Source of the DNA: Nemertoderma westbladi
Taxonomy: Eukaryota; Animalia; Xenacoelomorpha
Direction of reading: 5' to 3'
NCBI GenBank assembly: GCA_032718475.1
Contig: JAUCBJ010007526.1
Location: 1 to 64,000, forward strand
Length of the DNA stretch: 64,000 nucleotides
The notes beneath the pieces were generated by a model, which saw only the letters and a list, made by a program, of their open reading frames with translations, was not told the DNA's origin and searched no databases. Below, piece after piece: positions 1 to 45,785 of this stretch. The position numbers and the translations under genes were made by a program. How positions within the stretch are numbered: the first letter of the stretch is position 1; each line of letters begins with the position of its first letter.

Positions 1-1058
1 TGTACGAAGGTATCTGGGTTCTGTTCGATCGGCCAACCAGCTTAGGGAGGTTGCCTCAGCCCTGCTGTCCGTATCGGCCAATAGAATTTGAGTGGGCGTT
101 GATTTTGACCTATCCCAGAGCTACTGAACTGAATTTCCTATCTGTATGCTCATCCTCTGTGTTGGACGGGAGCTTCGGGGAATAAGGGTAGTTGGTATCC
201 TCGTATAGTCAGGTAGTCATATGATTCTTCATATGATTCTGTTGTTGTGTTCCCATTTTTCGCCATAACACCGGCTTTTGGGAAGAACTCTAGTAAAACT
301 GCTTAAATTATCGAAAGTATAACTGTTACCTCACTAACTAATCTCACTTAATTTAACTGCACTAATCATATTGTTTGTACTGTTATTTACCGTCAGTTAT
401 TAATTGTATAGATTTGTTGATGAAATATTGCCCTTTGGAGAATACGGATAAATCACCCAAAATTCCCAATTTTCTTGATACACTACAGGTTAGAGAGACA
501 GGCTATATATAACAATTGCGATTTATATCAATGTGGTGTGTATTGAATCAAATGTTATTTAGCAGACACTACATGAGTCAATTGCTGTTCTCTTTATGTG
601 TGATCAAATATACTGACGGTCGGCAGAATAGTGTGCATGATTGTGATTGGTAACAAAGCATTTCCTAAAGAATGCGCCTTATACTTTAATTATAAGCATT
701 ATCGTTGCGTTTAGTATAAGTCCTAGCTCTGTTTAAATAGATAGAGCGCCACGTCCAAAAGGAACTGTTAATATTTCCCGAAAGCCAATAATATCTGTCA
801 GAAATTAATTATTAACGATCAATCGAATAATACAGTAGGTTTACACTGCAACCTTACACTGCAATAATAAAATTTAAGCATCCGAATTCAGCCTCCCGGG
901 TGTATCCATCGGGTGAATGATCGCGCATGGGCTGGCTTCGGCTAATGTTTTTGTTTATTAGCATAAAATATTGTCGTATGCTAAAGGTGTTTTAATTAAC
1001 TAAAAGACATATAAATTTTGGCAGGTTAAACTGCTAAAGGTCTTCAAAAGCGCGAACA
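1..1058 (+). mobile_element. Diverged LTR (solo or 3' LTR, cut by window edge) related to the 31512-43970 element, in opposite orientation
   Basis: Colinear similarity to the reverse complement of 42738-43970 (e.g. GAGCTACTGAACTGAA, CTTTGATACACTACAGGTTAGAGAGA-like block, GGCAGGTTAAACTGCT). Ends ...AAAAGCGCGAACA at 1058 versus ...AAAAGCGCGTACA. Followed by unrelated sequence. Confidence 0.85.
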
Positions 1059-14042: not shown

Positions 14043-14266
14043 GCAAAGTGGAATAACTTTCCCGTTTCTTGGATCTGGAAAATTAATTTATTTATGTGTT
14101 AAAAAAATATAAGGCTCGGACTAGGACTATATTAGACTAAGACTTCATCATCTACACTAAATATCTGTTAAAGAAATGTTATTTCATTAATATCTTCGTT
14201 GGCTATTCGTGTCATTCATTACCGGTATCTACTGGATGTAAACCTAAATAAAAATAAATGGGGAAT

Positions 14267-18305: not shown

Positions 18306-18409
18306 TATTAAAGGCCACAACTGGTGGGGTTTGTGTCATTAGTTTCAATTATATTGGTATTATTTAGACTGTCACATTTATACGTCAGTTAGTCCGAATT
18401 GTATTAAAT

Positions 18410-19972
18410 ATGTCTTCGAATACTTTGAGTGACGCTGCTTGGGATTTACTGGATCGTATCATGGCAGATGAAAGTGATTCTCAGTCCGGTGGTGAGGAAC
18501 AAGAGATCTGCGTCGCTCCACCAACTGTTAATAAAGAAATCGACACAAACAGCGGTATAAATGTTATCAGTTTTAAATCAGAAGCGGAACCTATTTGCGG
18601 TACTTCCGAAGATAAATCTCAAAAGATCAAACAAGAGTTATATACAGATGAACAATATTCTAATAATCAAATCGGTAACACAAACAGCGGTATAAACGTT
18701 ATCAGTTTTAAATCAGAAGCGGAACCTATTTGCGGTACTTCCGAAGATAAATCTCAAAAGATCAAACAAGAGTTATGTACAGATGAACAATATTCTAATT
18801 ATCGAATCGGCAACACAAACAGCGGTATAAACGTTATCAGTTTTAAATCAGAAGCGGGAGCTATTTGCGGTACTTCCGAAGAGACATCTCAAAAGATCAA
18901 ACAAGAGTTATGTACAGATGAACAATATTCAAATAATAAAATCGGCAACACAAACAGCGGTATAAATGTTATCAGTTTTAAATCAGAAGCGGAATCTATT
19001 TGCGGTACATCCGAAGATACATATTTTCGACATGTAAAACAAGATTTCTGTATTGAGGAACCTTCAGTTAGTGAGGTAGACATTTCGGTTAATAAATGTA
19101 AACAGTTTAAATGTGTTTATTGTGATAAAGTTTATAAACGCCAGCAAAAATTAAAGATCCACATACAATCAGTACATAAATGTATCAAGTATAAATGCGT
19201 TTCTTGTGACAAACAATTTAGTGTCAAAGGCGGCCTAAAGAGACACATGGAATCAGTACATAAAGGTGTAAAGTATAATTGCGGTTCTTGTGACAAACAA
19301 TTTAGTGACCAAGGATATCTGAAGATACACATGGAATCACTACATAAAGGTATCAAGCATAATTGCGGTTCTTGTGACAAACAATTTAGTGTCAAAGGAG
19401 GCCTAAATAGACACATGGAATCAGTACATAAAGGTATCAAGTATAATTGCGGTTCTTGTGACAAACAATTTAATGTCAAAGGAAATCTAAAGATCCACAT
19501 ACAATCAGTACATAAAGGTATCAAGTATTATTGTGAATCTTGTGACAAACAATTCAGTGACAAACAGATTCTAAAGAGACACGTGGAATCAGTTCATAGA
19601 AATATCAAGTATAGTTGCGTTTCTTGTGACAAACAATTTCGTGGTAAAGGATATCTGAAGAGACACATAGAATCAGTCCATAAAGGTGTCAAGTATAAAT
19701 GCGGTTCTTGTGACAAACATTTTAGTCGAAAAGGGCCTCTAAAGATCCACATACAATCAGTTCATAAAGGTGTCAAGTATAATTGCGGTTCTTGTGACAA
19801 ACAATTTAGTCGAAAAGGGCCACTAAAGATCCACATACAATCAGTTCATAAAGGCATCAAGTATAATTGCGGTTCCTGTGACAAACAATTTACTCAACAA
19901 GGAAATCTAAAGAGACACATGGAATCAGTACATAAAGGCATTGAGTATAATTGCGTTTCTTGTGACGTGTAA
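18410..19972 (+). CDS. Intronless C2H2 zinc-finger protein (10 complete fingers, 45-aa N-terminal repeats), 520 aa
   Basis: Ten CxxC-x12-H-x4-H units with KG[IV]KYxC linkers; 135-bp repeat starting at 18543, 18678, 18813 and 18948. Confidence 0.92.
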   Translation: MSSNTLSDAAWDLLDRIMADESDSQSGGEEQEICVAPPTVNKEIDTNSGINVISFKSEAEPICGTSEDKSQKIKQELYTDEQYSNNQIGNTNSGINVISFKSEAEPICGTSEDKSQKIKQELCTDEQYSNYRIGNTNSGINVISFKSEAGAICGTSEETSQKIKQELCTDEQYSNNKIGNTNSGINVISFKSEAESICGTSEDTYFRHVKQDFCIEEPSVSEVDISVNKCKQFKCVYCDKVYKRQQKLKIHIQSVHKCIKYKCVSCDKQFSVKGGLKRHMESVHKGVKYNCGSCDKQFSDQGYLKIHMESLHKGIKHNCGSCDKQFSVKGGLNRHMESVHKGIKYNCGSCDKQFNVKGNLKIHIQSVHKGIKYYCESCDKQFSDKQILKRHVESVHRNIKYSCVSCDKQFRGKGYLKRHIESVHKGVKYKCGSCDKHFSRKGPLKIHIQSVHKGVKYNCGSCDKQFSRKGPLKIHIQSVHKGIKYNCGSCDKQFTQQGNLKRHMESVHKGIEYNCVSCDV

Positions 19973-23279: not shown

Positions 23280-25690
23280 GTTAAGTTTATGGGAGAGTGG
23301 AGAGTAATTGTTTTTTGTATGAGGCAGAAAAACAGGGTTTTGAATTTTTAAGTTTAAATTTATGTGGTATTGCATTCCAAATCGTCGGGCCTTGGAAACT
23401 CATGGAAGTTTGAGAGGAACATAGACGTACTTTAGGGATAGTATAACCGGAGTTGCTGGAGAGGCGAGTAGAGTAATTATGAAGGGAGGATATTTTTTGG
23501 AATAGAGAGCCTACAGTAGATTCAGCGGGATAGTATTGGAGTTAATATCGTACATAAAGTTTCCTACTTGGTGTCTATATAGGAGGTCCAGCGGAAGAAA
23601 TGACCTTCATAAGGCGCAGAAAGAGTCCCGACTCAAACAGACTACAGCGGCCAAGAATGCAGTTAAGGCTGCATCTAGGTCCCTGAACAGGCAGTACTCT
23701 GTTAATCTACAGGAGCTAATAAACCAACAGGTTGATGCCATCAATGATGCTGACGACAGCAGGCAATCATCCCAGGCATGGAAATCGATCAATCTGCTTA
23801 CTGGGCGGAAAAGCCAACCAACCACCAAGGTTAAGGCTGAATCACCAGCCGATCGCCTCAATGGTTGGAAAGCCCACTTTGAAAAGCTCCTCAATAATGA
23901 CAGGGTATTGCCTGATAACTTTATAGAAGTAAAAGTGTCTGAGTCTGTACTCCCAGATATTCCCATTGGCGATATCTCCTTTGCAGAAGTGAAGGCTGCT
24001 GCAAAGAGCATTAAGACCAATCGTGCCAGTGGAGTAGATGGTGTTCCCCCTGAGGTCTTTAAAATACCTGAGTGTTTAAAGCTCATCTATCCCATCATAG
24101 TAGACATGTACCGTACAACAAGAGTCCCACAAGAAATGAAAACAAATAAGTTGGTGCCAGTTCCCAAGAAGGGCAACCTAACACTCTATGGTTCTTTTCG
24201 GGGAATCTCATTGATCTCGATTGCTGCAAAACTATACAATAGAATTCTATTAAATCGCATCAGGGATCCCATTGAGAGACTGCTACGTGGAAATCAGAAT
24301 GGGTTCCGTAAAGGTCGTGGGACCATGGAGCCCATTTTGGCACTTAGAAGGATGATTGAAGAGTTATCAAAAAAGAAAGACAGGCATCTGGCTGTTATCT
24401 TTGTTGACTTCTTCAAGGCCTTTGATTCAGTCTCTCGCTCACGTATGTTCAGCATACTTTCATTATATGGGATTCCTGATGAAATTATTGCAGCAATCAG
24501 ATCAGTATACGATGGTTCGACAACATTTGTGTCTACTGTTGACGGTGACACAGAACCATTTGAAGTGTTATGGGGCGTCCTCCAAGGAGACACACTTGCA
24601 CCATTCTTGTTCATTATTGTGGTTGACTATGTTCTACGCATGTCCTTAGATCATCATAATGATGATGGGGTGATGATAACTCCACCTACTGGCTCCAGAA
24701 GTCGAGGAAATCCTGCCAAGTACCTAACTGATCTAGACTTTGCTGATGACTTAGGAGTACTCTCAGAATCATTAGAGGGAGCCCAACGGCTCCTTCAGCT
24801 CATTAGAACATGCTGCTTCTAGTGTTGGTCTTTTTATTAACTCCAGAAAGACCAAAATTCTGACAGTTAACTTTGAAAGTCCTCAGCAAGTCTCTGATCG
24901 GATGAGCATAAGCTCAAAGGATGGTATGCTTGAGCATGTGGACGACTTCTGTTACCTGGGATCATGGATCCGGAAGTCAGGTGAGGACCTTCGAATACGT
25001 AAGGGAAAGGCATGGGCAGCCTTGAATAGGCTTTCCAGGATTTGGAAGTCACCTAGAATTAATCGGAAACTTAAGGTCCGATTATTTAGAGCAGCAGTAG
25101 TTCCAGTACTCCTCTACGGGAGTCCATGCTGGGCTCTAACTGCTGAGGACACCAAATCTCTGGATGGCACATTCACAAGAATGCTACGCCGGGTACATTG
25201 TGTCAAGTACAATGCACACATCTCCAACCAGACACTATATAACATTGGAGGTGTCTCATTGGTTCCCCCAAGCTTGACACTAGAACAAAATCGCCTCCGC
25301 TTTGCAGGACATTGCTTTCGCCGTGAGGACCAGCCAGTGCATAATCTTGTACTTTGGCAGCCTCATGGAGTGAATAAGCATGGTGGACAGCCCATGACTT
25401 TCTTGATACGCATCTTAAAGGACACTGGCCTTAAAGATGCGGATGATCTAGCAAATGTCATGGGTGATAGGGAGTTGTGGCGGTGCAATTTTGTTGACAA
25501 GCCGGCACAGCATTCTTAAAAATGCAGCTGCAATGCAGCATGCCGATCCTAGTAGTAGTAGTAGGAAGAATACTAAGTGATTTATAAATAGGTCTAGAAG
25601 GGGCTTGATAGTGGGAAAAGGTTATACAGCGTACGAGTTTGTTAATTTTAATTTGTAGTGGTTTTAGAGTAGTTGATCGGCAGACGAGAG
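23280..25690 (-). mobile_element. L2/CR1-clade LINE 3' fragment, interrupted by an RTE insertion
   Basis: Rejoined translation LKPLQIKINKLVRCITFSHYQAPSRPIYKSLSILP/LDLLYRHQVGNFMY...HNYSTR...FQGPTIWNAIP, typical of the ORF2 C-terminus. Confidence 0.75.
23600..25563 (+). mobile_element. 5'-truncated RTE-clade LINE with frameshifted RT
   Basis: RT motifs FRGISL, QNGFRKGR, FVDFFKAFDSV, GVLQGDTLAPFLF, LDFADD, YLGS; frameshifts near 24810-24900; (TAG)n tail; 7-bp TSD GGAAGAA at 23593-23599 and 25564-25570. Confidence 0.92.
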
Positions 25691-27618: not shown

Positions 27619-28908
27619 TTACATCCCTTCCGCGTTTAATTTCTTCAATTTCTCCCGGATTATTATAAGGCGTTGGATCTGGTTAGTTCCCTCGTAAATC
27701 TGGTAGATCTTCGCGTCTCTCATGAGTTTCTCTACGGGATATTCGGAGTTGTAACCGTTGCCTCCGTGGATCTGTACCGCGTCGCTGGCGCACCGATTTG
27801 CGTGGTCCGCGGCGAGACACTTCGCGATGCTGGCCATGTACGTGTTCCGTTTCCCTTGATCGGCTTCCCAGGCAGCGTTGTACACAGTAAGTCTAGCCGC
27901 CTCGGTTCCTATCAACATATCCGAAATCATGTTGGACACGGACTGGTGCGCGATTATCGGTTGCCCCATGGTTTTACGTTCGACCGCGTATTTAATGGAC
28001 TCGTCGATACAACGCTGAGCCAACCCCACGGCAGCGGCGCCCACCCCCGGCCTAGTGTGATCGAAAGCCCCCATAACCACCCTGAACCCCTCACCCGGCT
28101 TCCCGATAACATTGGAAACTGGAATACGAACATCTTCGAAGGTGACACCAGCGGTATTAGCGGCTCGTTGCCCCATGTTCCACTCCTTTCGGCCTTTCGT
28201 GATGCCGGGCGCGTCGGCTTCTATAACGAATGCGGTGAAAGCGCGATTCGTCGGGGCCTTTGGGTCCGGATCGGTCCGCGCCAACAAGAAATACCAACTC
28301 GCCATCCCTCCATTCGAAATCCACATTTTATTCCCGTTTATTATGTATTCATCCCCTTTTTTCTCCGCTTTCGTTTTTATCCCTGCTACGTCTGATCCAG
28401 CTCCCGGCTCTGTCACGCAGTACGCGCACACTATTGGCTCTTCCACCAACCAACCCAGGTATTTCTTTTTGAGATCGTGACTACCGAAAGAGAGGACCGG
28501 CGCGCCCGCTAATCCGTTAGCGAGCATCGCTAAAGAGATCCCCGTGCAAGCGTAGTTGGTCTCTTCCGCTATGATCATGTGTTCCATTGCGGAGAGACCT
28601 AAGCCCCCGTAGTCTGCGGGGACCCCGGTGTTCATGAGACCCAGACCCCACGCCTCTCGGATTATCTCCCACGGGAATTCGCCGCTTTTATCGTGCGCCG
28701 CCGCCACTGGGAGGATGCGTTCTCGCGCGAACTTTCGTGTCATCTGCTGCAGATCGAGCTGCTCGTTGGAGAACTGGAAGTTCATCCCGGTTTGGGTGTC
28801 AGCGGTTCCCGCGGCCGTCTGGGCGGAGATCGAGCGGTGTTGCGGTAGCGACCAGCGGCGACACTGCCCCCCGAAGACGTTCATTCTCGAGATACGGAAG
28901 AGAGCCAT
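27619..28908 (-). CDS. ACADM: Medium-chain acyl-CoA dehydrogenase, mitochondrial (intronless), 429 aa
   Basis: [78 protein letters not shown] (catalytic Glu in YEGT); Arg-rich N-terminal presequence. Confidence 0.95.
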
Positions 28909-29617
28909 AATAATATGTCGTGGTAAATGTCAGAATGTGTCAGATTATGCGGGTTGACGGGGTAGGCTGTATTGCCGATAGGTAATCAGGTAATATAAGG
29001 GTTGCTTAAACGATAAAGGTAGTTGTTAGACTGTTACAGTCAGACAGTGTTATAGATAGTTACCACTCGTCAATACAGTAAGATGGGGTGGGCTACTTAC
29101 TACCTGGCAGCCTTAAGGGGTACGTGTTTACAGTTTAAGATGTGTAGCCCTAGTACAGTTAGGTACTTTCGCCTAATTAAGCGCCACTGCCAAACCGCCC
29201 AATTGAGCGCTGCCTATAGTAATCTCCATAGGAAACTTAGAGCTCAACCGCGCATTAAACTTAAAAAACACGCACTTTTTGGACAAAACAGCTGGCTTTA
29301 TCACCATGGATACCATATTTTGGCTTGTGTAAATAAAAAATTCGCATGTGTATTCTTCCAGAAAAGTGTATCGAAGTAAAAATTCGTCTAATTAAGCGAG
29401 ATGATTTTACGACCGCCTAATTGAGCTTTGCTTAAGATTAGTAAAATATGTGAACACCCAATTAAGCGCATACAGACTATTACACTCTATACTGGCTGAC
29501 TGGTATTTTTGTTTCCAAGTCCATTTTTACAGACAAATTTTGATTTTGTATTTATTTTTATTAACGATCAGACGATTTTATTATTTTTTTATTGAAATAT
29601 ATTTCAACATTTAATAA

Positions 29618-31211: not shown

Positions 31212-31511
31212 AATAATTATCCTGATAATGGGAGGACTAACGTTAAGTAATTTGGGGAAAATCTTTTCGACCTACGCGTAGGCCTACGTGTAGCTACGCG
31301 TAGCTACGCGTAGCTACGCGTAGTTCGCAACATTGGGTCATATATCACCAGTTTCAGAGTTTTAACAATAACTACGCGTAGGTGCTACGCGTAGCTACGC
31401 GTAGGTGCTACGCGTAGCTACGCGTAGGTCCTACGCGACCTACGCATAGGTGCTACCCATAACTATGCCTATACGTCAGTACGTCGTTTATCATTAGTAG
31501 GCTTACGTATT

Positions 31512-32744
31512 TGTACGCGCTTTTATAGACCTTCAGCAGTTTAACCTGCCGAAATTTATATGTCTTTATTGATAATCTGCCTTTTGTAAGATGATAAGAT
31601 TTAATACAAACAAACCAAAAACATTAGCCGAAGCCAGTCCATGCGCGTCCAAATGACCCGTTTATAACACCGGGAGACTGGATTCGTGGGCTTAAATTTA
31701 TTTGCGGTCAAGCCTACGGTATTATTCGATTGATTACTAATATATAATCTCTGACAAATATTATTCACTTTCGGGAAATATTAGCAGTTCCTTTTAGGAC
31801 GTGGCGCTCTACCTATGTAAACAGAGTTATGACTGATACTACACACAACGATATGGCTTAAATTTCAAGCATAGGGCGCATTCTTTAGGAATGCTTTATT
31901 ATCAGATCCAATCACTTTACAATCACGCACGCTACCGGTAACGCACAACACTGCTCACTGATATGCCGACAGTTACTGACTTTGATCAGGTATAAAGAGA
32001 TATGCACTGGACTCAGGTAGTGTCTGTCAAACAACATTAGATTCACTACAAACACAATAATAAAGTCGCAATTGTTGTACATAACCTTTCTCTCTAACCT
32101 GTAGTGTATCAAAGATATTGGGAAAATGTGGGTTGATTATTGATATTCTTCAACTAATAACATCCAATTATACTGATACAAAATTACAAACAGTAAAAGC
32201 AGTATGACGGTAGGTTAAGATACAATTAGATTGCATTGAATCGTTAATAGCGAATTGGTAAGATAATAGCTATGCTTTCTATAATTTTGCCTACTAATGT
32301 TCTTACAAAAAGGCAGAAAACATTTCGCTATCTCAACACGGTCTTAAAACACTGATAATAAAGTCCTAAAATCATAACGAAATCATAACAAAAATCCCGT
32401 GACTTTAGCTCTCTTATTTTCCAAGAATCCCGTTCAACACATGTAATCAGCAGTGAGACAGGATAATTTCAGTTCAGTAGCTCGGGATTGGTCGAAATCA
32501 GAACTAACTCAACGCAGGGCTATGGGTAACTGGGGCAACCTTCCCAAGCCGGCTGGCCAATCGAACAGCTCAGATCCCTCCTAAAGGATTCCAACGCTTT
32601 GGAGGGGGGAACTGGTTAGCAAAGAAAACAAATCAGTCATATCCCAGAAAAACCTTTACAGTAGGTTTCAGAGTATTTTAGCGTATGGGGGAAAAACTGG
32701 GTTGCGGGGCGAAGGGCCAGTTACATCCCACAGAAGCTTTTACA
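31512..32744 (-). repeat. 3' LTR
   Basis: No difference from 42738-43970 found by eye; preceded on the minus strand by GGGAGCGG. Confidence 0.95.
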
Positions 32745-32752
32745 CCGCTCCC
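32745..32752 (-). promoter_or_regulatory. Putative polypurine tract
   Basis: GGGAGCGG immediately 5' of the 3' LTR on the element strand; short and imperfect. Confidence 0.6.
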
Positions 32753-32822
32753 AGAAAATGAGATTGAAGTCTATAAAATATACAAAATCGCAGTTTCTAA
32801 TATACATAAATACTCTAAACCG

Positions 32823-33500
32823 TTAGTCTTTCTTGCGCGGACGGCGTTTACGCAGTTTTTTAAAGCTAGCCAGAGTCCTTTTCTCTTTGGGGCGAGCCAC
32901 TTTACAAGGAGGGCTATAACTCCTGGGTGAAGGGTGCAATATAATTGCATCAGAGGGTGCAGGATTGTTGTCGGTATATCCGCCAGTTGAGGTTCCGGGT
33001 AGATTGTCATCAACATCGGGGGACTGGGGTCTAACGGCCTTTAGGGCTCGTTTTAGGACGGCTGCTCTCACAGGTCCTCTGCGAGTGGTCTGAACGGAAG
33101 CCGTGGGTGGACCGTAGGCTGTCAGAAACTGTCTTGGTTTAACGGTTCTCTCCAACTCGCGTTCGCGGGCTCGATATTCGTAAGGCCTTCGATATACTTC
33201 TTGTAACTCAGGATGCGAGTTAACGAATAATTCTCCATAGTCCGGATCGCGTCGGATAAAGTTGATTAAATAATAGGAATGAATATCATTGGGGTTAACT
33301 CTCCTAAGAGTTTATCTCCGAAGTTGGGAATCATCGAGGGATGACGGATAGTTTTAGAGTATAAGTCCGTCATAAGGATTTGGGTTTCGGGTTGAGCTAA
33401 AGCGGCTTCTTCCCTCTCGTCCATTTCCGTATGTTTCTTTTCGAGTTGGTTCTCTTCCGCGCGTTGTCTCATACGCTCGTCTAGAAACTCCTGGAGAGAG
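32823..33500 (-). pseudogene. Decayed accessory ORF in the 3' region of the LTR element
   Basis: YSLQEFLDERMRQRAEENQLEKKH...(stop, frameshift)...YEYRARERELERTVK...KKLRKRRPRKKD. A second, internally deleted copy at 33504-33850 conserves the peptide FLDExxxxRAEENQLExKH despite many DNA differences. Confidence 0.5.
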
Positions 33501-34465
33501 TACGCTTTTACACCGCTCCCAGAAAATGGGATTGAAGTCTATAAAATATACGAGATCACAGTTTCTAATATACATAAATACTCTAAACCGTTAGTCTTTC
33601 TTGCGCGGACGGCATTTACGCAGTTTTTTAAAGCTGGCCAGAGTCCTTTTCTCTTTGGGGCGAACCACTTTACAAGGAGGGCTATAGCTCCTGGGTGAAA
33701 GGTGCAATATAATTGCATCAGAGGGTGCAGGCTTATAGTCGGGGTATCCGCCGTTTCGATATGCTTCTCCTCGAGCTGATTTTCCTCTGCTCGTCGGTGG
33801 ATACATTCGTCCAAAAATCTCGCGGAGAATAGAGTCGTCCAAGTTCGATATCTTCTTAGAGATTAGTTTAAGTTATCTGAACAAACGCAGGTTTCTTTCC
33901 TGATCTTTGTGGAATAGCGTCTAACTCGTTTCGGACAACGCTCTCCTCTACCTTGATGACGGGTGGTAGCGGGTTAAACGGGAACGATCCCGATTACACG
34001 GTTGAATGGCAACAACGGGTGTCCGTGCCTCAATCCGGCCAGGTAAGATAGGCGGATATTTAGGGAGCCATTAACCTGAGTGCCACCAACTAACGGCTCG
34101 GGTAACACTGGATCTCGGAACAGTAAGCACAGTTCATGAGGATCCGTGATACTATTAGGATCAAGAGTCCGAGATCTAACTAAGGAAGGAGGAGGTCTGA
34201 CCGAGCATTCCGGAACTCAGATCATAGGTCTACTCAAGGATCGCCCGAGCCGAGAAAGCGTGGGTGACACATCGAACAAGTTTCTCTCGAAACTCCCGCA
34301 AACACAGCGAGCAAACCGTGTTTAAAGCTTCGTCTCCGTTGACGTTTATGTCTTTCCGTTTGTTGGTTGGTCTTAGGCATTCATCGTAATAATACCAAGA
34401 CACACGTCTTGTAGGGGAAACGCGAGTGATATTTATTTGGTGTTACAATGCTTCTCTCAAGAATT

Positions 34466-34888
34466 CTAAATATACGTTGGAGTTACCGCGTTTATCCGCT
34501 TCTTGAACGTCTTTTCTTTCGCGTAGACTTCGAATAGAATTTTCGCATTCGAATTTAAGTTCATTGTTACGACTCCGCTGGGTAGGATATTTAAATAATA
34601 CCATTTCCCTTTTGTGTTGACATAGTCCGTATCGTGTAAGTCGATAGAATAGCCGGTAGTTAAGAAGTCCATATACATACCATTAATATGCGTATAGCGA
34701 GCGGTGAACTTGCTACAGTCCAACCCACGCGCAAGTTGCTCCTGGGACATAGGTGGTTCGATATAACTACCATCGTCCTCGGTAGTAGTTGGATCAGCTT
34801 CACCGCGTATCAAGCTATCCACAAACGCTTGTAAAGGTAGAGTATATCCCTCTCTAATACCAAAATCATCTTCTATCAACTCCGTCAT
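34466..34888 (-). CDS. Orphan 140-aa ORF inside the LTR element
   Basis: Intact ATG-to-stop ORF with globular-looking composition; AG 2 nt upstream of the ATG and AATAAA ~30 nt after the stop. No recognised domain. Confidence 0.45.
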   Translation of the reverse strand: MTELIEDDFGIREGYTLPLQAFVDSLIRGEADPTTTEDDGSYIEPPMSQEQLARGLDCSKFTARYTHINGMYMDFLTTGYSIDLHDTDYVNTKGKWYYLNILPSGVVTMNLNSNAKILFEVYAKEKTFKKRINAVTPTYI

Positions 34889-36522
34889 ATCTGTTATATG
34901 AGTCTACCAATATTAGAAGGAGTTTGGCTTTAGGCGAGCAGGCGTCGCTGCCTACCCCTCTCTGCCCCCGGACAGTGGGATCCTCAGCGCAGATGCACCG
35001 TTGTCGCGTGTTTACGCCAACGTTGTGGCAACAGCACGACAACGATAACCGGCACAAGTCACTCCACTGTCCGTCCCAAAGTCTTGAAATCACTTGAGGT
35101 TCTTGCTATGGGAGAGTTGGGCTACTTTACAATTGCGACTAGCTACGGTAAACACACTTTAGCAGTAACATTCACCTACAAACGCACAAATTCCACACAA
35201 CAGCTACCAACTACAATCATACAGGCCACTTGTCCGTTAGTCAGTGCTTTCCAAAATGTCACGTTGTTATTGTGTATCCTTGGATACCAACAGTGTGCTA
35301 TGTAATCACTATGCTAGGCAATGGGCAAGCTTTCTATTGTTCTGTTAACTCGTTTCTAATTCTGTTAACTCGTTTCTAATTCTAGCGTGGGTGTTGCTAT
35401 GGTGACATTATGTAAAGCTAGCGGTAGAATTAGGGTAATTCTCATGCATACAGATCTGGGATGCTGTTTGATAGTAAGTCTTTAATTGTCAAGATCCTCT
35501 TTATACATGATTTTATGAATTTTGTCGGCTATTGACTATATGTTGGAGATTCTCGCGCTCTAATACACTCAATAGGATTAATCTCCGCTCCCGTGATCTA
35601 TTAATTAGTGGAATTTTGGGAATATTAGAAATTGTGCAAAATGACAATTTATTAGATTCATAAAATATGAATTTTAAATTTATTCCCGTGAATTTTATTA
35701 TTTGATGGTAAGATTGACACAATTTTGATTCCAGAACATATCTGGGGACATAAGATCCTTAATTCTATAAAATGGTCTTTTAAGAATACCGGTAAGTGCT
35801 ACGATATCTTAATTAACTAGAAATTTTAAAGGATCTGAATTTGACAGATTTTAATAAATATTAAATTAATATTTAAGATGGGCACCGATTTATTCCAGAA
35901 CTTGTCTGGGGACGTTAACCACTGATTCTAGAATTTGTCTTTCAAGTATATCGGTGGGTGCCACGATATCTTAATCGACTAGAATTACAGATGGTCAAAA
36001 GTTTAACAGATTTATTTGCGTTTTACGCTACTGTTAAAGGGACATCACGCTACTATATGTATTATTTAATATAGGTAGAAGAGCAATATCGCACAAGGCA
36101 ATGTCAGTGTGAAGAGGCAAGTCGTTTCCAAGGTCTACCCAGAGCTTGGTTTAGCCGAGACACGAGGATCTGAACTTTGCATTCCTAATACTCTGCCTAC
36201 CAATAATACTGAAAATATAGTAGTGGCTTTATTGTACTTTAATAAGTACGGACATTTCATCTTACTGTAGTCTCGCATTTATAATATAATACGGACAGTA
36301 AGGAAAGAGAAAATAATTATTTCTCGCCGTCGCACTAAGTATATTATGTAATTACGTAATAAACACTAATATATTGCACTAATCTACTAAATAATCTAAA
36401 ATAACACTCTACTAAATAAAATTAAATAAAACGATTATAATAAAATACATAGTAATACATACATAAATATAAAATAAAAACAAATATAAAATAATATAGT
36501 CACACACCCACTCCATATATTA

Positions 36523-39500
36523 TTACGTGATGGAGTCCCTAGATATTTGTCGAATTAGGGAAGTGGTCGTAGGAAGAGTATCTTGCCTTCCATGGTTTCC
36601 GGACAGTTTTCGGTCTCTTCCCGGTAAACCTAAACGACCAGCTGGGCGATTAGGCCGTCGTGATATTTCCTCCGCTCCCTTGGCCTGTCTAATCTCCGCC
36701 GCGGCAAGACGAGGAGGCCATTCTTCTTCTTCTTTACTTAGGGAGTCGGGTCCACCCAACCAGCCGGGAGTATCTATCCGTTCTTGAGGAGTTACTCCTC
36801 TGGAAGCGATGTCGGCTAGATTAATCGTCTCGGGTCGATGTCTCCATTGATCTACATTGGAGTTGATATCGTCGCTATCTGAGGAGTATGTTGTTCCCTC
36901 AGTGGCTTCGTCCACCTCACTGCTCTCCTCTTCCCAAGCTTTTACTTGAAGTATCCGGTCTTGTGGCAGTCTTTCTTCAAGGGTTCTGCGGGAAGGGCCA
37001 GTGAAGTACCAACCTACTCGAGTTCTTACCGCATAAGGTTGTAATGGCTGCGGTTGAGCAGGCCGTTTCTCTAACGTCTCGAGCGCCTCATGCGCGTTTT
37101 GGCCGATAAGGATTTGTACTCCAGGATAATCAGTTTGGAATCGAGGTATTCCCAAATGTTGGATGTTCTCGTCCTCGTCCCAGTCATAAGGTTCTACTTG
37201 AGTAGTAGCGAAGTTCTTTATTGCCACCATTTTTACTGACTCTATACTTTGTTCCCCTAATTTATCCTGTGGAGTGGACAATGCGCCGATATAATAATCT
37301 GCCATTAAGGTAGATTTCCAAACCTGCATAATTCCGGACATATTTAACTTAGTTCGGAATTTGGGTTGTCCAGCAAAAATATCCTCGGCTAACTCCTTGT
37401 CGATGAATGTTCCGGTGCTACCTGAGTCAAGGAGGGCGTTCACTATGTAACTTTTATTAGGCCCGTGAACTCTTACCTGGACTACCGGAAATTCTCGTAT
37501 TCCTATGTTGGATGTTGGAACTTTCCAAGATGGTTGCTTGTCCAAGGGGGTTGATGGAAACTCCGTGTCGTTGTCCTTTTCGTACGTAAGTGCTCGATAC
37601 ACTGCGGTGTTTATTAGATAACAGGATTCGTTGGCATCAGAGAATTCGTCCGTATAGAATCCTTCCCACTCAGAACTTTGGTCAGTGTCGTTCACATCAC
37701 TGAATTGTACATGTGATTTGGGCTCACTTACCTGACTCGGGTGGTTTCGTTCGAATTCCGTGTGCAATAAGCTGTGATGTTTCGCGCCGCACTTAGCACA
37801 CCTTGCGTCAGAGTAACAGGTTCGCCGCTGGTGTCCGCGTCTGAGACAGTTATAACACAACCGCTTATCCCACAGGACTCCACGTCTATCTGCCAGGGAT
37901 TTCTTTTGGAATTCCGCACACGCACTCAAACGGTGGGGCCCGTCGCACAGCGCACATTTTGGTTTGATGTTACTCACTTTAACTTGGGCAATGCTGTGCA
38001 CTTTCGCTCGTTCTTCGGGCTTGCTTACCTGAATTCTTTTGGGAGACTGAGGAGGGGTCTTGGTAAGCTTGTCTCTCCTATCATTGGTTCGAGGCTGGTA
38101 TTTACTTACGTCTCTCGGGGTTTTGTGGTCATCGTAGGATCTTGCTGTGTCTTTCCCGCTGTCCTCTTCATGGGAGGTCTGGCTTTCGCCGTCGTCAGTA
38201 TAACATACTGATGTTACCCTTCTCCTAGAAACGGGTTTCTCACTTACCTTATCTTCCGATGTTTTTTCCCTGGATTGCTTTATTAATTGTAGTTTGACCT
38301 CACGGTCTAGGAATGACATGAGATCCGCCATGGTGGGGCTCCGTCGTTGTTGCTCCATCATATACAACACTTTCTTGTCCCAGCGAGTACATACTCCACC
38401 CTTTGGTAAAGTAGAGACTATGGCTCCAATAACCATGGAACTCTGATATTCATGGGACTTACCTAACCAATCCAATTGCCTACAGATTTCTTGAATCTCA
38501 TCGGAAAACTCTATAATCTCGTTACTAAGGAACTTTCGAGGAGCTACCAGTTTTGCATACAAATACTTAGCGATATTATCCTTATTACCATACCTGGTGT
38601 TTAATGTGTCCCAGACTTGTCTTAATCCATTTGGATGTCCAATAAACTTCAACGCCATTAACTTGGGAGGTCCTTCCAAACATTTGATGAGGAATCTCAG
38701 TTTCTCTCCGCTAGATAGTACAGAGTTCTGTATGCTATCTTCATAATATTCTTTAAAAGGTAACCATTTCATCTCATCACCGTTGAATTTGACAATTTCT
38801 CCCACTTTGACCGCTTGGCGGGCTTCTGTTCTAGCCATCTGACGCGTAAAGCTTTCTTGGGCCATCGTGTTATTTAATATCGAATTATCGGTATATAAAT
38901 TTTTCAGATCATTATCAGGTCTATAGGGAATATCATTACTCACAGGTTTGTAATCTCCTTTAATAGGGTTTACTATAGGAGTTTCTACATCGCTAGCAGT
39001 ATATATGCGTATAGGCGACACACCTTGCGCATGATACACTTCAGACCTAGCAGGTTGACACAGGGTTACAGGGGGTGTTTCTACTTTACTAGCAGTATAT
39101 ATGCGTGTAGGCGACACACCTTGCGCATGATACACTTCAGACCTAGCAGGTTGACACAGGGTTACAGGGGGTGTTGGTATTCCCCTTTGTATATTGACTA
39201 ATTTGTCGCGCTCTAATGCGATATTTTGCTGCACTTCTTGCAGCTCTATCCTACTATCCCTTACGGTTCCCTTGAGTTGGTAGACAGTCCCTTCTAAGTC
39301 CCGGATCTGTTGCGAGGAACAGTCCCGCTGTTCCCGCATTTGACCGAGCAAGAGACTCATCTCCCGCCGTCCCTTCTCCACCCACTCGACCGCCGAAGCG
39401 GGAGTCGCCAACGTTGTAGCGGGCCGTATCGGGGCGACGGGAGACAGATCTTGTATGTCTCTCTCGGTCTCCAGAACCGGGGCTTGGGCTGCTCCACCAG

Positions 39501-40860
39501 GTGCCGTTAGTTTAATAGTACTGTGTAAAGGGAATTTGGTAGTAGGTTTGGGGAGTACAGGGGTCTCTCTCACCGAAGTGGTGTTTTCTAGAACAGGCCT
39601 AATCATTTCCGGCTCATCTACTATAGTAGGGAGTCTGGTAATGGTAATAGTTTGGTCTGTGGGTTCTGTACTCGCTACTGCAGTGCTAGATATTTGTCTT
39701 CTAACAGCTGGAGGCAAATCAGGCAATCTCTGACGTGAAGACATTCTTTTACGCCTACTGAGACGAGATCTATTTCCTCCACCTTCAGGGTCGGTAGTGT
39801 CTCCTTCCTCCGATGATGTATACCCTTGGCGTTTCGAAGTAGATCGACTCAGTATCTTCATTCGACTTTCTGTGAGGCGTTTATCGATGTAATCATGTGT
39901 CTCTTGCAGATTTGCCAACTCTAGTTGGGCGATCTCGTCAGAAGCTCTCTTTTCCGCTTCTGCCAATTTTCTTTCTGCCTCTGCCTCTGCCGCTGCTAGC
40001 TTGCTTGCTGCCTCTGCTAGCTTTCTTGCTGCCTCTGCCTCTGCTAGCTTGCTTGCTGCCTCTGCCTCTGCTAGTTTTCTTGCTGCCTCTGCCTCTGCTA
40101 GCTTGCTTGCTGCCTCTGCCGCTGCTACTGCCTTTCGATTTTCTATTTGTTTTTTCTGGACTTGTGTTTCCTGGGCTCTAGCGATGCGTCTTTCCTCATC
40201 AAATTTAGCTTGATCTTCAGCTAACATCTCAGCATCAAGGTTGTCCAACACACGCTTAGCCCCTGCACTATTAGGTGAAAATCCATGCAGTCTTCTTCTC
40301 AACTCCTTGTCTCCTATGAATCGCTGATAATCTGACAAATAGGTATCAATTGCATCTCTCTTTTGTGGTCCTTCTGGTGTTAATTCGCTTTCCACTTCGC
40401 TTTCCACTTCGCTTTCCACTTCGCTTTCCACTTCGCTTTCTACTTGAGAAGAAGGGGCGTCGGTTGATTCTTCAAAGGTTGGCCGCTCATCACAAGCCGT
40501 ATCCACCATTTTCGCTCCGCGTTCGGGTGTCCGCTCAACAGTCTCCGAACTACTGGAGCTATCTGGTCGCTGGGGACTAGGTTCTCGATCAGGATGTTGC
40601 TGCGATAGGACAGCTTCCTCTAGGTTCCGTTTTACCTGGGCCCGAGTGCCTATGATAGACCTATGGTGGATTAGCCTAGGGTCTGATACTACTACTGTAG
40701 GGCTAGGGATGACCTTGCTTACAGTAGGAGGGGACTTGGACTTCGGTCTCAGACGTTCTATACTCTTAGCTGAGTCCCAGATCTTTTTAAGACCCTGTCT
40801 AACACTCGTTCTAGCACTTTCTAAGAAACTATCTGACAGTGATTGGGTTTGGTCAGCCAT
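36523..40860 (-). CDS. BEL/Pao Gag-protease polyprotein lacking RT and integrase, 1445 aa
   Basis: DUF1759-like capsid region (KFNGDEMKWLPFKEYY...EKLRFLIKCLEG...LNTRYG); three zinc knuckles (CALCDGPHRLSAC, CYNCLRRGHQRRTC, CAKCGAKHHSLLH); protease ALLDSGS...ILIG...GWYFTGP; then directly the RNase H tail WRHRPETINLADIASRG...WLGGP...WP. No YxDD or integrase DDE. Confidence 0.92.
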   Translation of the reverse strand: MADQTQSLSDSFLESARTSVRQGLKKIWDSAKSIERLRPKSKSPPTVSKVIPSPTVVVSDPRLIHHRSIIGTRAQVKRNLEEAVLSQQHPDREPSPQRPDSSSSSETVERTPERGAKMVDTACDERPTFEESTDAPSSQVESEVESEVESEVESEVESELTPEGPQKRDAIDTYLSDYQRFIGDKELRRRLHGFSPNSAGAKRVLDNLDAEMLAEDQAKFDEERRIARAQETQVQKKQIENRKAVAAAEAASKLAEAEAARKLAEAEAASKLAEAEAARKLAEAASKLAAAEAEAERKLAEAEKRASDEIAQLELANLQETHDYIDKRLTESRMKILSRSTSKRQGYTSSEEGDTTDPEGGGNRSRLSRRKRMSSRQRLPDLPPAVRRQISSTAVASTEPTDQTITITRLPTIVDEPEMIRPVLENTTSVRETPVLPKPTTKFPLHSTIKLTAPGGAAQAPVLETERDIQDLSPVAPIRPATTLATPASAVEWVEKGRREMSLLLGQMREQRDCSSQQIRDLEGTVYQLKGTVRDSRIELQEVQQNIALERDKLVNIQRGIPTPPVTLCQPARSEVYHAQGVSPTRIYTASKVETPPVTLCQPARSEVYHAQGVSPIRIYTASDVETPIVNPIKGDYKPVSNDIPYRPDNDLKNLYTDNSILNNTMAQESFTRQMARTEARQAVKVGEIVKFNGDEMKWLPFKEYYEDSIQNSVLSSGEKLRFLIKCLEGPPKLMALKFIGHPNGLRQVWDTLNTRYGNKDNIAKYLYAKLVAPRKFLSNEIIEFSDEIQEICRQLDWLGKSHEYQSSMVIGAIVSTLPKGGVCTRWDKKVLYMMEQQRRSPTMADLMSFLDREVKLQLIKQSREKTSEDKVSEKPVSRRRVTSVCYTDDGESQTSHEEDSGKDTARSYDDHKTPRDVSKYQPRTNDRRDKLTKTPPQSPKRIQVSKPEERAKVHSIAQVKVSNIKPKCALCDGPHRLSACAEFQKKSLADRRGVLWDKRLCYNCLRRGHQRRTCYSDARCAKCGAKHHSLLHTEFERNHPSQVSEPKSHVQFSDVNDTDQSSEWEGFYTDEFSDANESCYLINTAVYRALTYEKDNDTEFPSTPLDKQPSWKVPTSNIGIREFPVVQVRVHGPNKSYIVNALLDSGSTGTFIDKELAEDIFAGQPKFRTKLNMSGIMQVWKSTLMADYYIGALSTPQDKLGEQSIESVKMVAIKNFATTQVEPYDWDEDENIQHLGIPRFQTDYPGVQILIGQNAHEALETLEKRPAQPQPLQPYAVRTRVGWYFTGPSRRTLEERLPQDRILQVKAWEEESSEVDEATEGTTYSSDSDDINSNVDQWRHRPETINLADIASRGVTPQERIDTPGWLGGPDSLSKEEEEWPPRLAAAEIRQAKGAEEISRRPNRPAGRLGLPGRDRKLSGNHGRQDTLPTTTSLIRQISRDSIT

Positions 40861-42726
40861 GTTTGATTGTACAGTTGAATGCCTACTGCTATAGTTACAG
40901 TTAAAGCAAGTCTAGTAATTCAGTAAGACTGTTGGCCTAGTACCGGTAATTAATTGCAATATATTAGAATACCGGTATACACTTATAGTATATATAAGTA
41001 TAACAGACTAGATTTGTCACAGAGTACCGATATATAATTTTAGCACAAATATATATAAATATATAATAGGCCTATCGTGAATACCGGTATACAGCTGACA
41101 CTTATAGTATATATAAGTATAATTATTACTAGAATTAATTACAGAATACCGGTATGATTTCAGCTCAAATTTATAGAAATAAATATAATAAACCTATTAG
41201 AGATACCGGTATATCAATTATTTAGGATAATTGAATTTCTGAAATTATAAGTTACTTAGTTACTTGAGTTTACTCTGTTACCGTTATGTAAGCAGTAGTC
41301 CAACTGATATTGAGACCTACTTGTTGTATGGCAGGCCTACTGATTTACAAATCTTTGGAGTTGATTTACAATATATATATACCCTGATAAGGGATTTGTT
41401 ACAAGATTGAAATAGGTGTTACTATTTCTGGTAAAATACCACTACACAGAAGCTGTGCGCTTTCAGTGAAGTGCTACTTATGGGACACTAAACAGAATAA
41501 TTCTACTGGCCTACGTTACTTATTTACTAGTTACTTACTATTGGTGAGATTACAATCTCTAATAAACACACAAAAACGGTACGTACAGATTTTTAGGGCA
41601 ATTTTACAGGGAAACTACTAACCAGTCTAACAAAGGGTTAGATCTCCTGGTTATTTCAACGGACAGGATACTACGGTATTTGAAAATAATAAGCAGAAGT
41701 AAATATTGCGTTGTCTAGATAGGAAAATACCACCGCCTGACGACCTACAGCCGTAGCGCTATAGGTACAACGTTATGTATCTACGGAGTGTTCCTACCTA
41801 GAAGTTAATTACCGCCGTCTACCAGAACGAGCGTGCCTATTAACTACTTTACAACACAATAATGCCTACACTAATTACTCTCGGACAGCACTGTACACTA
41901 AACCCTAAATTAGGTACAGGTACTTGTAAAACAGATAACCAGTAATTAAATATACTTGAACAGTTAAAAGAACCACAGCATCTGCTGGAGTGACCGGGGC
42001 ACTAAGTCACCAGTCTTTACCTACGCCAAGCAGCCCGTGTAGTACTGGGGTTAATTTAACTATAACGGTATGTATAACAAACACAATTACTGTAGGAATA
42101 AACTTGGGGACATGAATGTTGCGAGTAATTGCATAAACTCTGAATAATAAATATTACGCTACCCGTACAGAATACTCAAATAAAATACAAACTAAAATGC
42201 TGACAGACTACCACTAAGCCTAAACAAACTACTGTATGTGCAGATTCTGAAACTGTTAGTTAGTATGCGTGCTAATACGGTAGTACGACTTATTCTTTAA
42301 GAGGGGATTGTCCTTACAGCGATGGCTGCCCCAACTTACTAACGGCACTTTATCAGACTTACTCTACACACGTAGCAATTCCTTCAGACCCAACAACAGT
42401 CAGACAACAGTCCAGCCTACAATGATCTGAACAATCTGAGCAGACTTACACGTCTTCGGCTCAATATTAACTTACTAGGAAATAAAACCGACAGAAATAG
42501 GTAAAATCTCAATAAAAATTCAGGGCTGCAGTCCCTGATTAAGTACTAAGACCTACCGGTATACAATAATCAAAATCGAATAATACTAATGTACTTGCAC
42601 AACAGTACCGGTTATGACAGTTGGGCCTACGGACCTACGGTAGTAGTACCGGTTATGACAGTTGGGCCTACTGACCTACTGGAGTGCCGGTATTTTCAAT
42701 CTTATTGCTTACCGCAAATAAGATCG

Positions 42727-42737
42727 ATAGCTATTAT
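42727..42737 (-). promoter_or_regulatory. Primer-binding-site position: ATAATAGCTAT, non-tRNA, complementary to LTR-internal 43489-43499
   Basis: Abuts the 5' LTR; no TGG. Exact 11-nt inverted repeat with a sequence inside the LTR. Confidence 0.55.
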
Positions 42738-43970
42738 TGTACGCGCTTTTATAGACCTTCAGCAGTTTAACCTGCCGAAATTTATATGTCTTTATTGATA
42801 ATCTGCCTTTTGTAAGATGATAAGATTTAATACAAACAAACCAAAAACATTAGCCGAAGCCAGTCCATGCGCGTCCAAATGACCCGTTTATAACACCGGG
42901 AGACTGGATTCGTGGGCTTAAATTTATTTGCGGTCAAGCCTACGGTATTATTCGATTGATTACTAATATATAATCTCTGACAAATATTATTCACTTTCGG
43001 GAAATATTAGCAGTTCCTTTTAGGACGTGGCGCTCTACCTATGTAAACAGAGTTATGACTGATACTACACACAACGATATGGCTTAAATTTCAAGCATAG
43101 GGCGCATTCTTTAGGAATGCTTTATTATCAGATCCAATCACTTTACAATCACGCACGCTACCGGTAACGCACAACACTGCTCACTGATATGCCGACAGTT
43201 ACTGACTTTGATCAGGTATAAAGAGATATGCACTGGACTCAGGTAGTGTCTGTCAAACAACATTAGATTCACTACAAACACAATAATAAAGTCGCAATTG
43301 TTGTACATAACCTTTCTCTCTAACCTGTAGTGTATCAAAGATATTGGGAAAATGTGGGTTGATTATTGATATTCTTCAACTAATAACATCCAATTATACT
43401 GATACAAAATTACAAACAGTAAAAGCAGTATGACGGTAGGTTAAGATACAATTAGATTGCATTGAATCGTTAATAGCGAATTGGTAAGATAATAGCTATG
43501 CTTTCTATAATTTTGCCTACTAATGTTCTTACAAAAAGGCAGAAAACATTTCGCTATCTCAACACGGTCTTAAAACACTGATAATAAAGTCCTAAAATCA
43601 TAACGAAATCATAACAAAAATCCCGTGACTTTAGCTCTCTTATTTTCCAAGAATCCCGTTCAACACATGTAATCAGCAGTGAGACAGGATAATTTCAGTT
43701 CAGTAGCTCGGGATTGGTCGAAATCAGAACTAACTCAACGCAGGGCTATGGGTAACTGGGGCAACCTTCCCAAGCCGGCTGGCCAATCGAACAGCTCAGA
43801 TCCCTCCTAAAGGATTCCAACGCTTTGGAGGGGGGAACTGGTTAGCAAAGAAAACAAATCAGTCATATCCCAGAAAAACCTTTACAGTAGGTTTCAGAGT
43901 ATTTTAGCGTATGGGGGAAAAACTGGGTTGCGGGGCGAAGGGCCAGTTACATCCCACAGAAGCTTTTACA
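42738..43970 (-). repeat. 5' LTR
   Basis: Direct repeat of 31512-32744, upstream of the gag ORF on the minus strand. Confidence 0.95.
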
Positions 43971-45785
43971 GTATTCCAAGCGAGTCAGTACTAAAATAAG
44001 ACACAATACGGTATGTTCAATAAACAACCCACAACCATCAAATGCTTTCAACAGTAATGTATCCTATACCTGTATACTCTATATAGAGGAATACGCGAAA
44101 ACTACATATTCTTCACTTCATGCGTTGCGGGCGGTAAAATGTGTTCATAATTAATGTTTAGAGTTCAAAAATAGTTTACAAAGGAAATAGGCCGATGGTT
44201 CTTATCGATTCTCTATGCTTTTTATTGCCTTTGTTCACGATAGGGCAAGGATATACTGTATTTAATATGTTAACCCCTTGACAAGGGAAGGGGGAGACTA
44301 AATTGTCTACCATGATTGGTTGCACTTGTCATTTGACCAAACAATTTGATTATATGCAGTATTTATCAGCTTTCGCTTAACCTCTTCACCGGTAGACTGG
44401 TCGCTTTATTTACTACTGTTCAATATTTAAATAATCCAATGGAAACAAAGATACTTGAATCATGAGACGTGAATTTCAAGTTTACTTTTTATTCATCCTC
44501 TGTGTTTGTATGTGAAAGAGCCGAATATTATTTATTACCAGTGCTGTATGTAGAGATATGAGTTTCCGATTCTGTTATTACATTTGTCTGATAATCAGAT
44601 ACCTGACATATACCGATACTTGCCTAACAACTCAACCCTACCGGACCTGCAATGAAAAATCATTGTTATCAGGACTGCTACGCGTAGCACCTACGCGTAG
44701 CTACGCGTAGCACCTACGCGTAGTTTCAAAATACCTACGCGTAGTTCCAAAATAACTACGCGTAGTTTTAAAACACCTACGCGTAGTTGTTAAAAAGGCA
44801 GTAAGTCTGGCCCTACCGGTAAATGACAGGAATGGAAGTTACAAACTACGCGTAGCTACGCGTAGCTACGCGTAGCTACGCGTAGGCCTACGCGTAGGTC
44901 GAAAAGATTTACCCGTAATTTGGGCTTAATTTGTAGTACAAATAATAGTGGTAAAGTGTAAGTCTGTAAGTAGACCTACAGATGTACCGGAAAGTAGCCT
45001 ACTGTACCGTTAGTACAGTACATAGTACAATAGTACGTTTCCAGTTGCAATCGCTTAATTAGACGTAGCAAACTGATATCTTATTTAGTGTCACCCAATT
45101 AAGCGTTAGATAATTTTACTTACATATCTGTACTCGCTTAATTGGGCGTTGCACATATAACCTTTTACATTGTAGCCTAATTAGGCGGTTAACAATTTTT
45201 CCATAGAGATGCATACGCTTATTTAGGCGATGTAGAATTCGCCTAATTAGGCGAAAGTACCTAACTGTAGTACAGTGTAGTACAGTAACCTGGTAACAGG
45301 AGTAAGTATGAAGTAGTACCGGCTGAGCGGTTGCGGTAGGCCTAAACACTACGCCAACAACCCACAACAATATTAGCGTTTGCGTTAATTACGGGGTACC
45401 ATATCAATTTATTGCTGGGAGGGAACAGGTTACGGTGGTACCATACCGGTAATTTATTCTAACCAAAACAATAATCGAGAGACAAGACAAAAGCATTTTA
45501 CAGTTCGTTTTTATCGCAGTACCGGTTAGATAGAAGTTGGTTTACTACCGGTAATAGTGTACGGTAATTAATATTACAGAGATAAACATCAATCAGAAAT
45601 AACGTTAGTACAGTCTACAGTCGTTATCTCTCGCTCGATGCATTTCAGCATTGAGAATGTTGGCAACTGTAACTTAAACTTGCAAGACAGTGAAGGTCAA
45701 TGGACATAAACAATAATGACAAAATAAAATATTGTTAAAAAGTAGGCCTAATTCATACATATAAATAATCGTATTCCACAAATGC

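Follow-up and report, generated by a model that had tools for sequence, protein, structure and literature searches.

How does a retrotransposon of the BEL/Pao superfamily prime minus-strand DNA synthesis when no tRNA-type site lies behind its 5' LTR? The question is raised by an element in the window, as we call the whole stretch of 64,000 nucleotides of Nemertoderma westbladi DNA analyzed here (GenBank assembly GCA_032718475.1, contig JAUCBJ010007526.1, positions 1 to 64,000). The ICTV profile of the Belpaoviridae describes an 18-nt primer-binding site (PBS) for a host tRNA-Arg or tRNA-Gly and tRNA-primed replication (PMC8742986), and the literature searched, which excludes subscription journals, Repbase, GyDB, and supplements, holds no report of BEL/Pao self-priming. 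Term look-ups in BEL/Pao papers (PMC554778, PMC3118150, PMC6238403, PMC8556966) found no passages on a PBS or a tRNA, and other works mention self-priming without linking it to BEL/Pao (PMC5006619, PMC3601003, PMC5443660, PMC6934838).

Anatomy and affinities of the window element

The element and its parts are as follows:

43970 to 31512, minus strand: BEL/Pao element of 12.5 kb
43971..43975, minus strand: target-site duplication AATAC, upstream copy
42738..43970, minus strand: 5' LTR of 1,233 bp, TGT..ACA, with 100% identity to the 3' LTR
36523..40860, minus strand: single ORF of 1,445 aa comprising gag, an aspartic protease, and a short Pol-like stretch of the kind found behind the reverse transcriptase (RT)
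32745..32752, minus strand: polypurine-tract-like GGGAGCGG ahead of the 3' LTR
31512..32744, minus strand: 3' LTR, an identical copy with a second copy of the primer segment (see below) at 32273-32263
31507..31511, minus strand: target-site duplication AATAC, downstream copy

The identity of the two LTRs and the AATAC duplication on both sides indicate that the insertion is young. On its sequence features, viz., a Gag with DUF1759 and zinc knuckles, the protease, the LTRs, the target-site duplication, and the polypurine tract, the element is assignable to BEL/Pao. DUF1759 is recovered in the gag part of the ORF with E 3e-13 and the protease motif reads LLDSGS, the matches to the protease and the knuckles being weak. 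The 17 database homologues of the ORF are BEL/Pao-type proteins, with PF05380 in 16/17 and PF03564 in 15/17; these domains, along with DUF1759, uphold the superfamily assignment made in the preliminary description. Two protein searches found no close relative of the window protein: long matches show ~22-37% identity, and 41-53% is reached over short stretches only. In tblastn searches with 17 BEL/Pao polyproteins, 36870-36712 matches, in frame over ~45 aa, the portion of Pol behind the RT, whereas neither RT nor integrase was found in the element. Given the absence of these two enzymes the element is non-autonomous, and it is a deletion derivative of a BEL/Pao element. The protein is of BEL/Pao type and without integrase, not a Ty3/gypsy chromovirus Pol with a chromodomain integrase. 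BEL/Pao sub-clades include BEL, Pao, Tas, Suzu, Sinbad, Dan, Sailor, and others; in a quick tree built without named clade references, the window Gag-protease forms a long branch apart from an insect-named group.

Protein scans of viral contigs confirmed no relatives, an LTR-end pattern search of metagenome contigs gave 0 matches, and a sequence look-up with the LTR turned up nothing resembling it; a first protein scan of genome contigs likewise found none, and a later alignment-based search retrieved 8 loci from genome bins. Variant LTR contigs are many in four public runs (X1, X3, X4, and X5, among 11 runs listed). One X3 contig covers 42644-42764, which includes the LTR-PBS junction, with zero differences at a depth of 8,226, as compared to ~117 on an unrelated flank, which suggests many copies of the family, depths not being equal to copy numbers.

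Several further features touch the element or its surroundings. A segment of 249 nt is duplicated internally at 94% identity (32736-32984 and 33504-33752, minus strand; spacing 768 nt), and within the duplication lies another polypurine tract, behind which the initial 9 nt of the LTR recur at 33512. The ~3.8 kb that separate the ORF from the 3' LTR (32745-36520, minus strand) contain short ORFs only, and the six of these that were tested gave no Pfam matches. An 83-nt inverted repeat of 93% identity (31249-31331 and 44838-44920) flanks the entire element, suggesting insertion into a DNA transposon or MITE. The start of the LTR (43970-43865, minus strand) looks tandemly duplicated; four X3 contigs exit the LTR at 43863 and run into a polypurine tract, from which it seems that another subfamily lacks the first tandem unit. 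Elsewhere in the window, an uninterrupted 436-aa acyl-CoA dehydrogenase frame among repeats (27619-28929, minus strand) is an intronless gene or a retrocopy; the remainder includes a C2H2 zinc-finger array with 84-nt repeats (18368-19972, plus strand), a reverse transcriptase of non-LTR type that is broken across two frames (23506-25519, plus strand), and satellite arrays with units of 36 nt (7778-9754), 41 nt (13005-14137), and 24 nt (55539 to ~57600).

A complement of the LTR at the LTR-leader junction and its sister version

Two segments of the element are central to the question of priming:

42727..42737, minus strand: candidate PBS ATAATAGCTAT, 11 nt, gap 0 to the LTR end, without TGG
43489..43499, minus strand: putative self-primer, LTR 472-482, exact complement of the PBS

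As in Tf1, the candidate PBS adjoins the LTR end and complements a segment of the element's own LTR. That this 11-nt exact reverse complement lies at 43499-43489, and that no TGG is nearby, had been claimed on first inspection of the sequence; the coordinates are right, the match ends at 11 nt, and the 60 nt that follow the 5' LTR are free of TGG, which leaves no 18-nt site of the tRNA-Arg or tRNA-Gly kind. In dinucleotide shuffles of the LTR (n=5,000) this 11-mer arises 7 times (0.0014), the earlier rough estimate having been ~1e-3. If the start is allowed to lie 0-5 nt downstream, the values are 0.0022 for 11 nt and 0.011 for 10 nt. Complements in the LTR exist for 8/9,982 internal 11-mers of the element, two of the 8 lying within the first 27 nt. 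When RNA from LTR 472 joined to 40-120 nt of leader is folded, the primer-PBS pairs at positions 2-11 have probabilities of 0.84-1.0.

The window holds a second, diverged LTR of this family:

1..1058, plus strand: sister LTR, subfamily B, 75% identity in the compared part
319-329, plus strand: site homologous to the primer
858-867, plus strand: site homologous to the LTR partner of the leader (see below)
866-871, plus strand: AATAAA

The B LTR, a solo or 3' copy that is probably cut by the window start, differs from that of the window element (A) at 181 of 735 aligned positions. Its site ATAACTGTTAC at 319-329, to which the preliminary description had pointed, aligns to the same LTR position as the A primer and differs from it at positions 4, 7, and 11 (3/11). 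The B site pairs weakly with the A PBS (-3.8 kcal/mol, vs. -11.7 with its own complement), and self-priming accordingly predicts a changed PBS in subfamily B. This prediction was compared with the public runs X1, X3, X4, and X5 at the B-type LTR end, using the loose ends behind 1058; the B primer site was taken from the window and the B PBS from the majority cells of pooled contigs, the comparison being unphased and at the population level. X1 (25 contigs, agreement 0.62, median 18 nt) matches the predicted B PBS at positions 1-9, among them the three diagnostic partner positions, each with its complementary base, and departs at 10-11. X5 (4 contigs, one of A type, agreement 0.84), which is possibly RNA and is represented by contigs, matches at 10/11 positions, with the A base kept at position 1 and complementary changes at two of the three diagnostic partner positions. 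X3 (9 contigs, 0.44) and X4 (5 contigs, 0.54) show sequence unrelated to the predicted PBS, probably mixed flanks. The covariation forecast at the outset thus finds support in X1 (9/11) and X5 (10/11), X3 and X4 being uninformative. At the transition rate of the LTR (94/735) the three given transitions have a P of 0.002, and together with six unchanged neighbours 0.0004; all three A/B changes in the primer are passable via G-U pairs. Subfamily B hence appears, from these assembled ends, to keep the primer-PBS pairing through matched changes.

Two other parts of the LTRs are conserved between A and B. The block GAGCTACTGAACTGAA (43709-43694, minus strand; ~117-132, plus strand) is identical in both amid a diverged region and is possibly a promoter. 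An ACAG-GTTAG following a pyrimidine-rich tract (~43350-43318, minus strand; 463-495, plus strand) resembles a splice site and lies on the downstream side of the primer.

Recurrence in other BEL/Pao elements

An alignment of 10 better-scoring full-length proteins, used as query, retrieved 64 loci from metagenome contigs in addition to the 8 from genome bins. A repeat on both sides of the ORF was present in 29 of these 72 loci, and 12, representing ~9 families, have a readable 5' LTR end; the other 17 were left out, with the repeat extending to the contig end or through the junction, or with no clear LTR end. None of the 12 has a TGG start at the junction (0/12). Under our first rule (gap 0-3, exact pairs), the sequence at the junction pairs with the element's own LTR over 10 nt or more in 9/12. 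The rule was widened to a gap of 0-5 and one G-U after viewing the remaining three, with controls scored alike: 11 nt or more are then reached in 11/12, with L004 reaching 10, as against 7/150 cross-family pairs and 1/13 mock sites. In all 12 the pairing begins 1-4 nt from the LTR end. It is contiguous in L004, L022, and L065, and in 9/12 it forms only across a predicted GT-AG intron in the LTR; pyrimidine-rich acceptors and mostly GTAAG-type donors accompany the six spliced joins of at least 11 nt under the first rule and that of L072. The window protein lies outside the group holding the loci of these 12 relatives in the quick Gag-protease tree; given its long branch, they show that the habit is widespread in BEL/Pao rather than close kinship.

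A similar (T/C)GAA(C/T) end is seen on the predicted primers of L012, L021, L042, L062, L065, L067, and L068, and this likeness may explain some of the matches among the cross-pair controls. The elements L065-L072 are on contigs placed in bacterial genome bins, most likely misbinned animal host DNA. For the window element itself a splice-built primer was considered and rejected: the best spliced join is 9 nt (equalled in 26/100 shuffles), below the contiguous 11, and the AG within the A primer is missing from B.

These observations incline us, by a modest degree, to the view that a large branch of animal BEL/Pao elements has abandoned tRNA priming entirely, most of them splicing an intron from the LTR to build the primer and others, among them the window family, carrying it ready-made. 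The ready-made primer perhaps arose after intron loss, and the leader of the window family may in addition switch so as to mask the 5' poly(A) signal. No printed report of splice-built primers was found in the literature searched; such a primer, if true, ties replication to host splicing.

The relatives and the sister LTR bear on two other explanations. That the 11-nt match is a product of chance, or a functionless by-product of template switching, would accord with the AT-richness of the site and the 8-nt palindrome within it, as well as with the occurrence of a 10-nt match at 0-5 nt in 1.1% of shuffles in a scan covering many elements; we nevertheless consider it most improbable, as the advance prediction from the diverged LTR is borne out at the population level and unrelated families follow the rule much more often than cross pairs do. 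A host RNA, be it a tRNA fragment, a spliced-leader RNA, or a small RNA, might alternatively serve as the primer, with the LTR match a decoy or relic, and half-tRNA priming is known in copia lineages (PMC6317226). The missing TGG, however, excludes the 3' end of a mature tRNA, no Rfam match was found in 31500-44000 (0), and the site varies by up to 3/11 between subfamilies, following the LTR, and is a different one in every family examined. A fixed host RNA could accommodate neither, and a host primer is accordingly very unlikely. ARAGORN found no tRNA genes in the window.

RNA structure, proposed mechanism, and known systems

The leader and the LTR end have further potential for pairing:

42707..42721, minus strand: leader segment, the complement of LTR 1032-1047, which also supplies the 5' arm and loop of a local hairpin
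42923..42939, minus strand: LTR partner of this leader segment, overlapping the AATAAA at 42928-42923
42741..42874, minus strand: predicted stem ACGCGC (42874-42869) : GCGCGT (42746-42741), closing the LTR end beside the PBS
42758..42779, minus strand: predicted hairpin, 8-bp stem and 6-nt loop, 20 nt ahead of the PBS

Leader nt 17-27 match LTR 1037-1047 exactly over 11 nt, the pairing extending to 42721-42707 with 42939-42924 and one bulge, and a local leader hairpin spans ~42725-42697. The preliminary description had offered both these structures, and both the complement and the local hairpin stand, whereas equilibrium folding does not favour the long-range stem as ground state: the duplex by itself amounts to -20.2 kcal/mol, and its probability is 0.03 or less in all 8 folds, with local hairpins winning. 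The relatives show no comparable leader match (6-8 nt at most). Since the LTR arm overlaps the AATAAA at 42928-42923, a switch that masks the 5' poly(A) signal is conceivable, as a speculative suggestion.

For the final 185 nt of the A LTR 51 pairs are predicted; B retains 33 of them unchanged, 3 with a one-sided and 3 with a two-sided change, and breaks 12, 8/12 of the latter sitting in one long hairpin that B refolds differently. The two-sided changes are spread over three U5 helices predicted from A alone. Among these helices, the predicted LTR-end stem shows one A-U to U-A change in B and the predicted hairpin at 42758..42779 one C-G to U-A change; of the flanking duplexes known from Tf1, the upstream one is predicted here, with one compensation. 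U5 additionally has a C(UUCG)G tetraloop hairpin (42862-42851, minus strand) that is the same in both LTRs.

This rich structure raises the possibility that the pairing is real and has a regulatory or structural role, such as packaging, dimerization, or masking of the 5' poly(A) signal, with something else acting as primer. It would fit such a role that the leader can pair over the only AATAAA common to the A and B LTRs, and that the X5 cell complements the B partner site 858-867 at 10/10 positions. Against it, the pairing has its start right at the LTR end, or at a distance of 1-4 nt in every one of the relatives, which is the place from which minus-strand synthesis must proceed, and no free site is left for another primer. 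We therefore regard a purely regulatory or structural role as unlikely.

Our preferred reading is that the window element would probably prime minus-strand DNA synthesis from its own RNA in the manner of Tf1, with enzymes acting in trans; the self-priming interpretation first put forward for this locus gains support from the covariation in B and from the same logic, in other letters, in other BEL/Pao elements. The element RNA would start at or upstream of 43499, and LTR nt 472-482 would fold back on the PBS, aided by the structured RNA at the LTR end. The RNA would then be cut behind nt 482 by the RT/RNase H of a putative autonomous partner, in the way known from Tf1; the 3' end so created would lie directly against the last LTR base and would prime synthesis. 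The Tf1 primer is 11 nt long, and Levin reportedly described in 1996 how it is cut. The strong-stop DNA of ~750 nt would jump to the 3' R region, the end of which would fall shortly behind the AATAAA at 42928 common to both LTRs. The two sites would stay matched if the primer were copied back into DNA of the PBS, a step reported for Tf1: PBS sequence that was copied into DNA is retained in about half of Tf1 cDNA (PMC11042837), and in this way primer and PBS could change in concert. Transcription need not start exactly at 43499, because priming needs only the 3' end of the primer; such an exact start, somewhat less likely than not, would fit the sharp 11-nt limit and the pyrimidine-A step at -1/+1 of the primer site in both LTRs. 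No TATA motif was found near -30 of 43499, as had been remarked.

If self-priming is true, the LTR superfamilies that prime from their own RNA number three, and the description of the Belpaoviridae has to be amended. Annotation that relies on the PBS would in that case overlook such elements or set their bounds wrongly, and they would, we infer, escape control by tRNA fragments. This family is young, seems to be present in many copies, and is split into two diverged subfamilies, so that mapping the ends of its RNA and cDNA is enough to test the question.

With the Belpaoviridae (PMC8742986) the window element shares the LTRs, a Gag with zinc knuckles and DUF1759, the protease, and the polypurine tract; it differs in that neither it nor any of the relatives (12/12) has the 18-nt PBS for tRNA-Arg or tRNA-Gly, and in that this copy of 12.5 kb is without RT and integrase. 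Self-priming is predicted for the plant TAR elements (Houba, Osr-1; Ty1/copia) and Tcn1 in PMC6317226, using the same sequence criterion of 10 nt or more at 0-5 nt behind the LTR; those elements are copia and gypsy, and that survey is of plant elements, not BEL/Pao. The closest likeness is to the Tf1/sushi group, for which self-priming is described (PMC4600332, PMC10085805): in Tf1/Tf2 (Schizosaccharomyces pombe), Tj1 (S. japonicus), and Tf1/sushi the PBS behind the 5' LTR likewise complements an LTR segment, and the PBS flanks are reported to pair with the LTR downstream of the primer, pairings to which the window element has possible counterparts. Tf1, by the account in PMC10085805, relies on a central primer-PBS duplex that has another duplex on either side, and its PBS begins ATAAC (PMC11042837), that of the window element ATAAT. 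Unlike Tf1, the window element is of a different superfamily, with a BEL/Pao Gag and protease, is non-autonomous, has a primer-PBS loop of ~750 nt and a downstream duplex disfavoured in folding, and belongs with BEL/Pao elements of which many others build the complement only across an intron. The feature is thus a real one that, to judge from the sequence, would work like that of Tf1 in an element that is not a member of Tf1/sushi.
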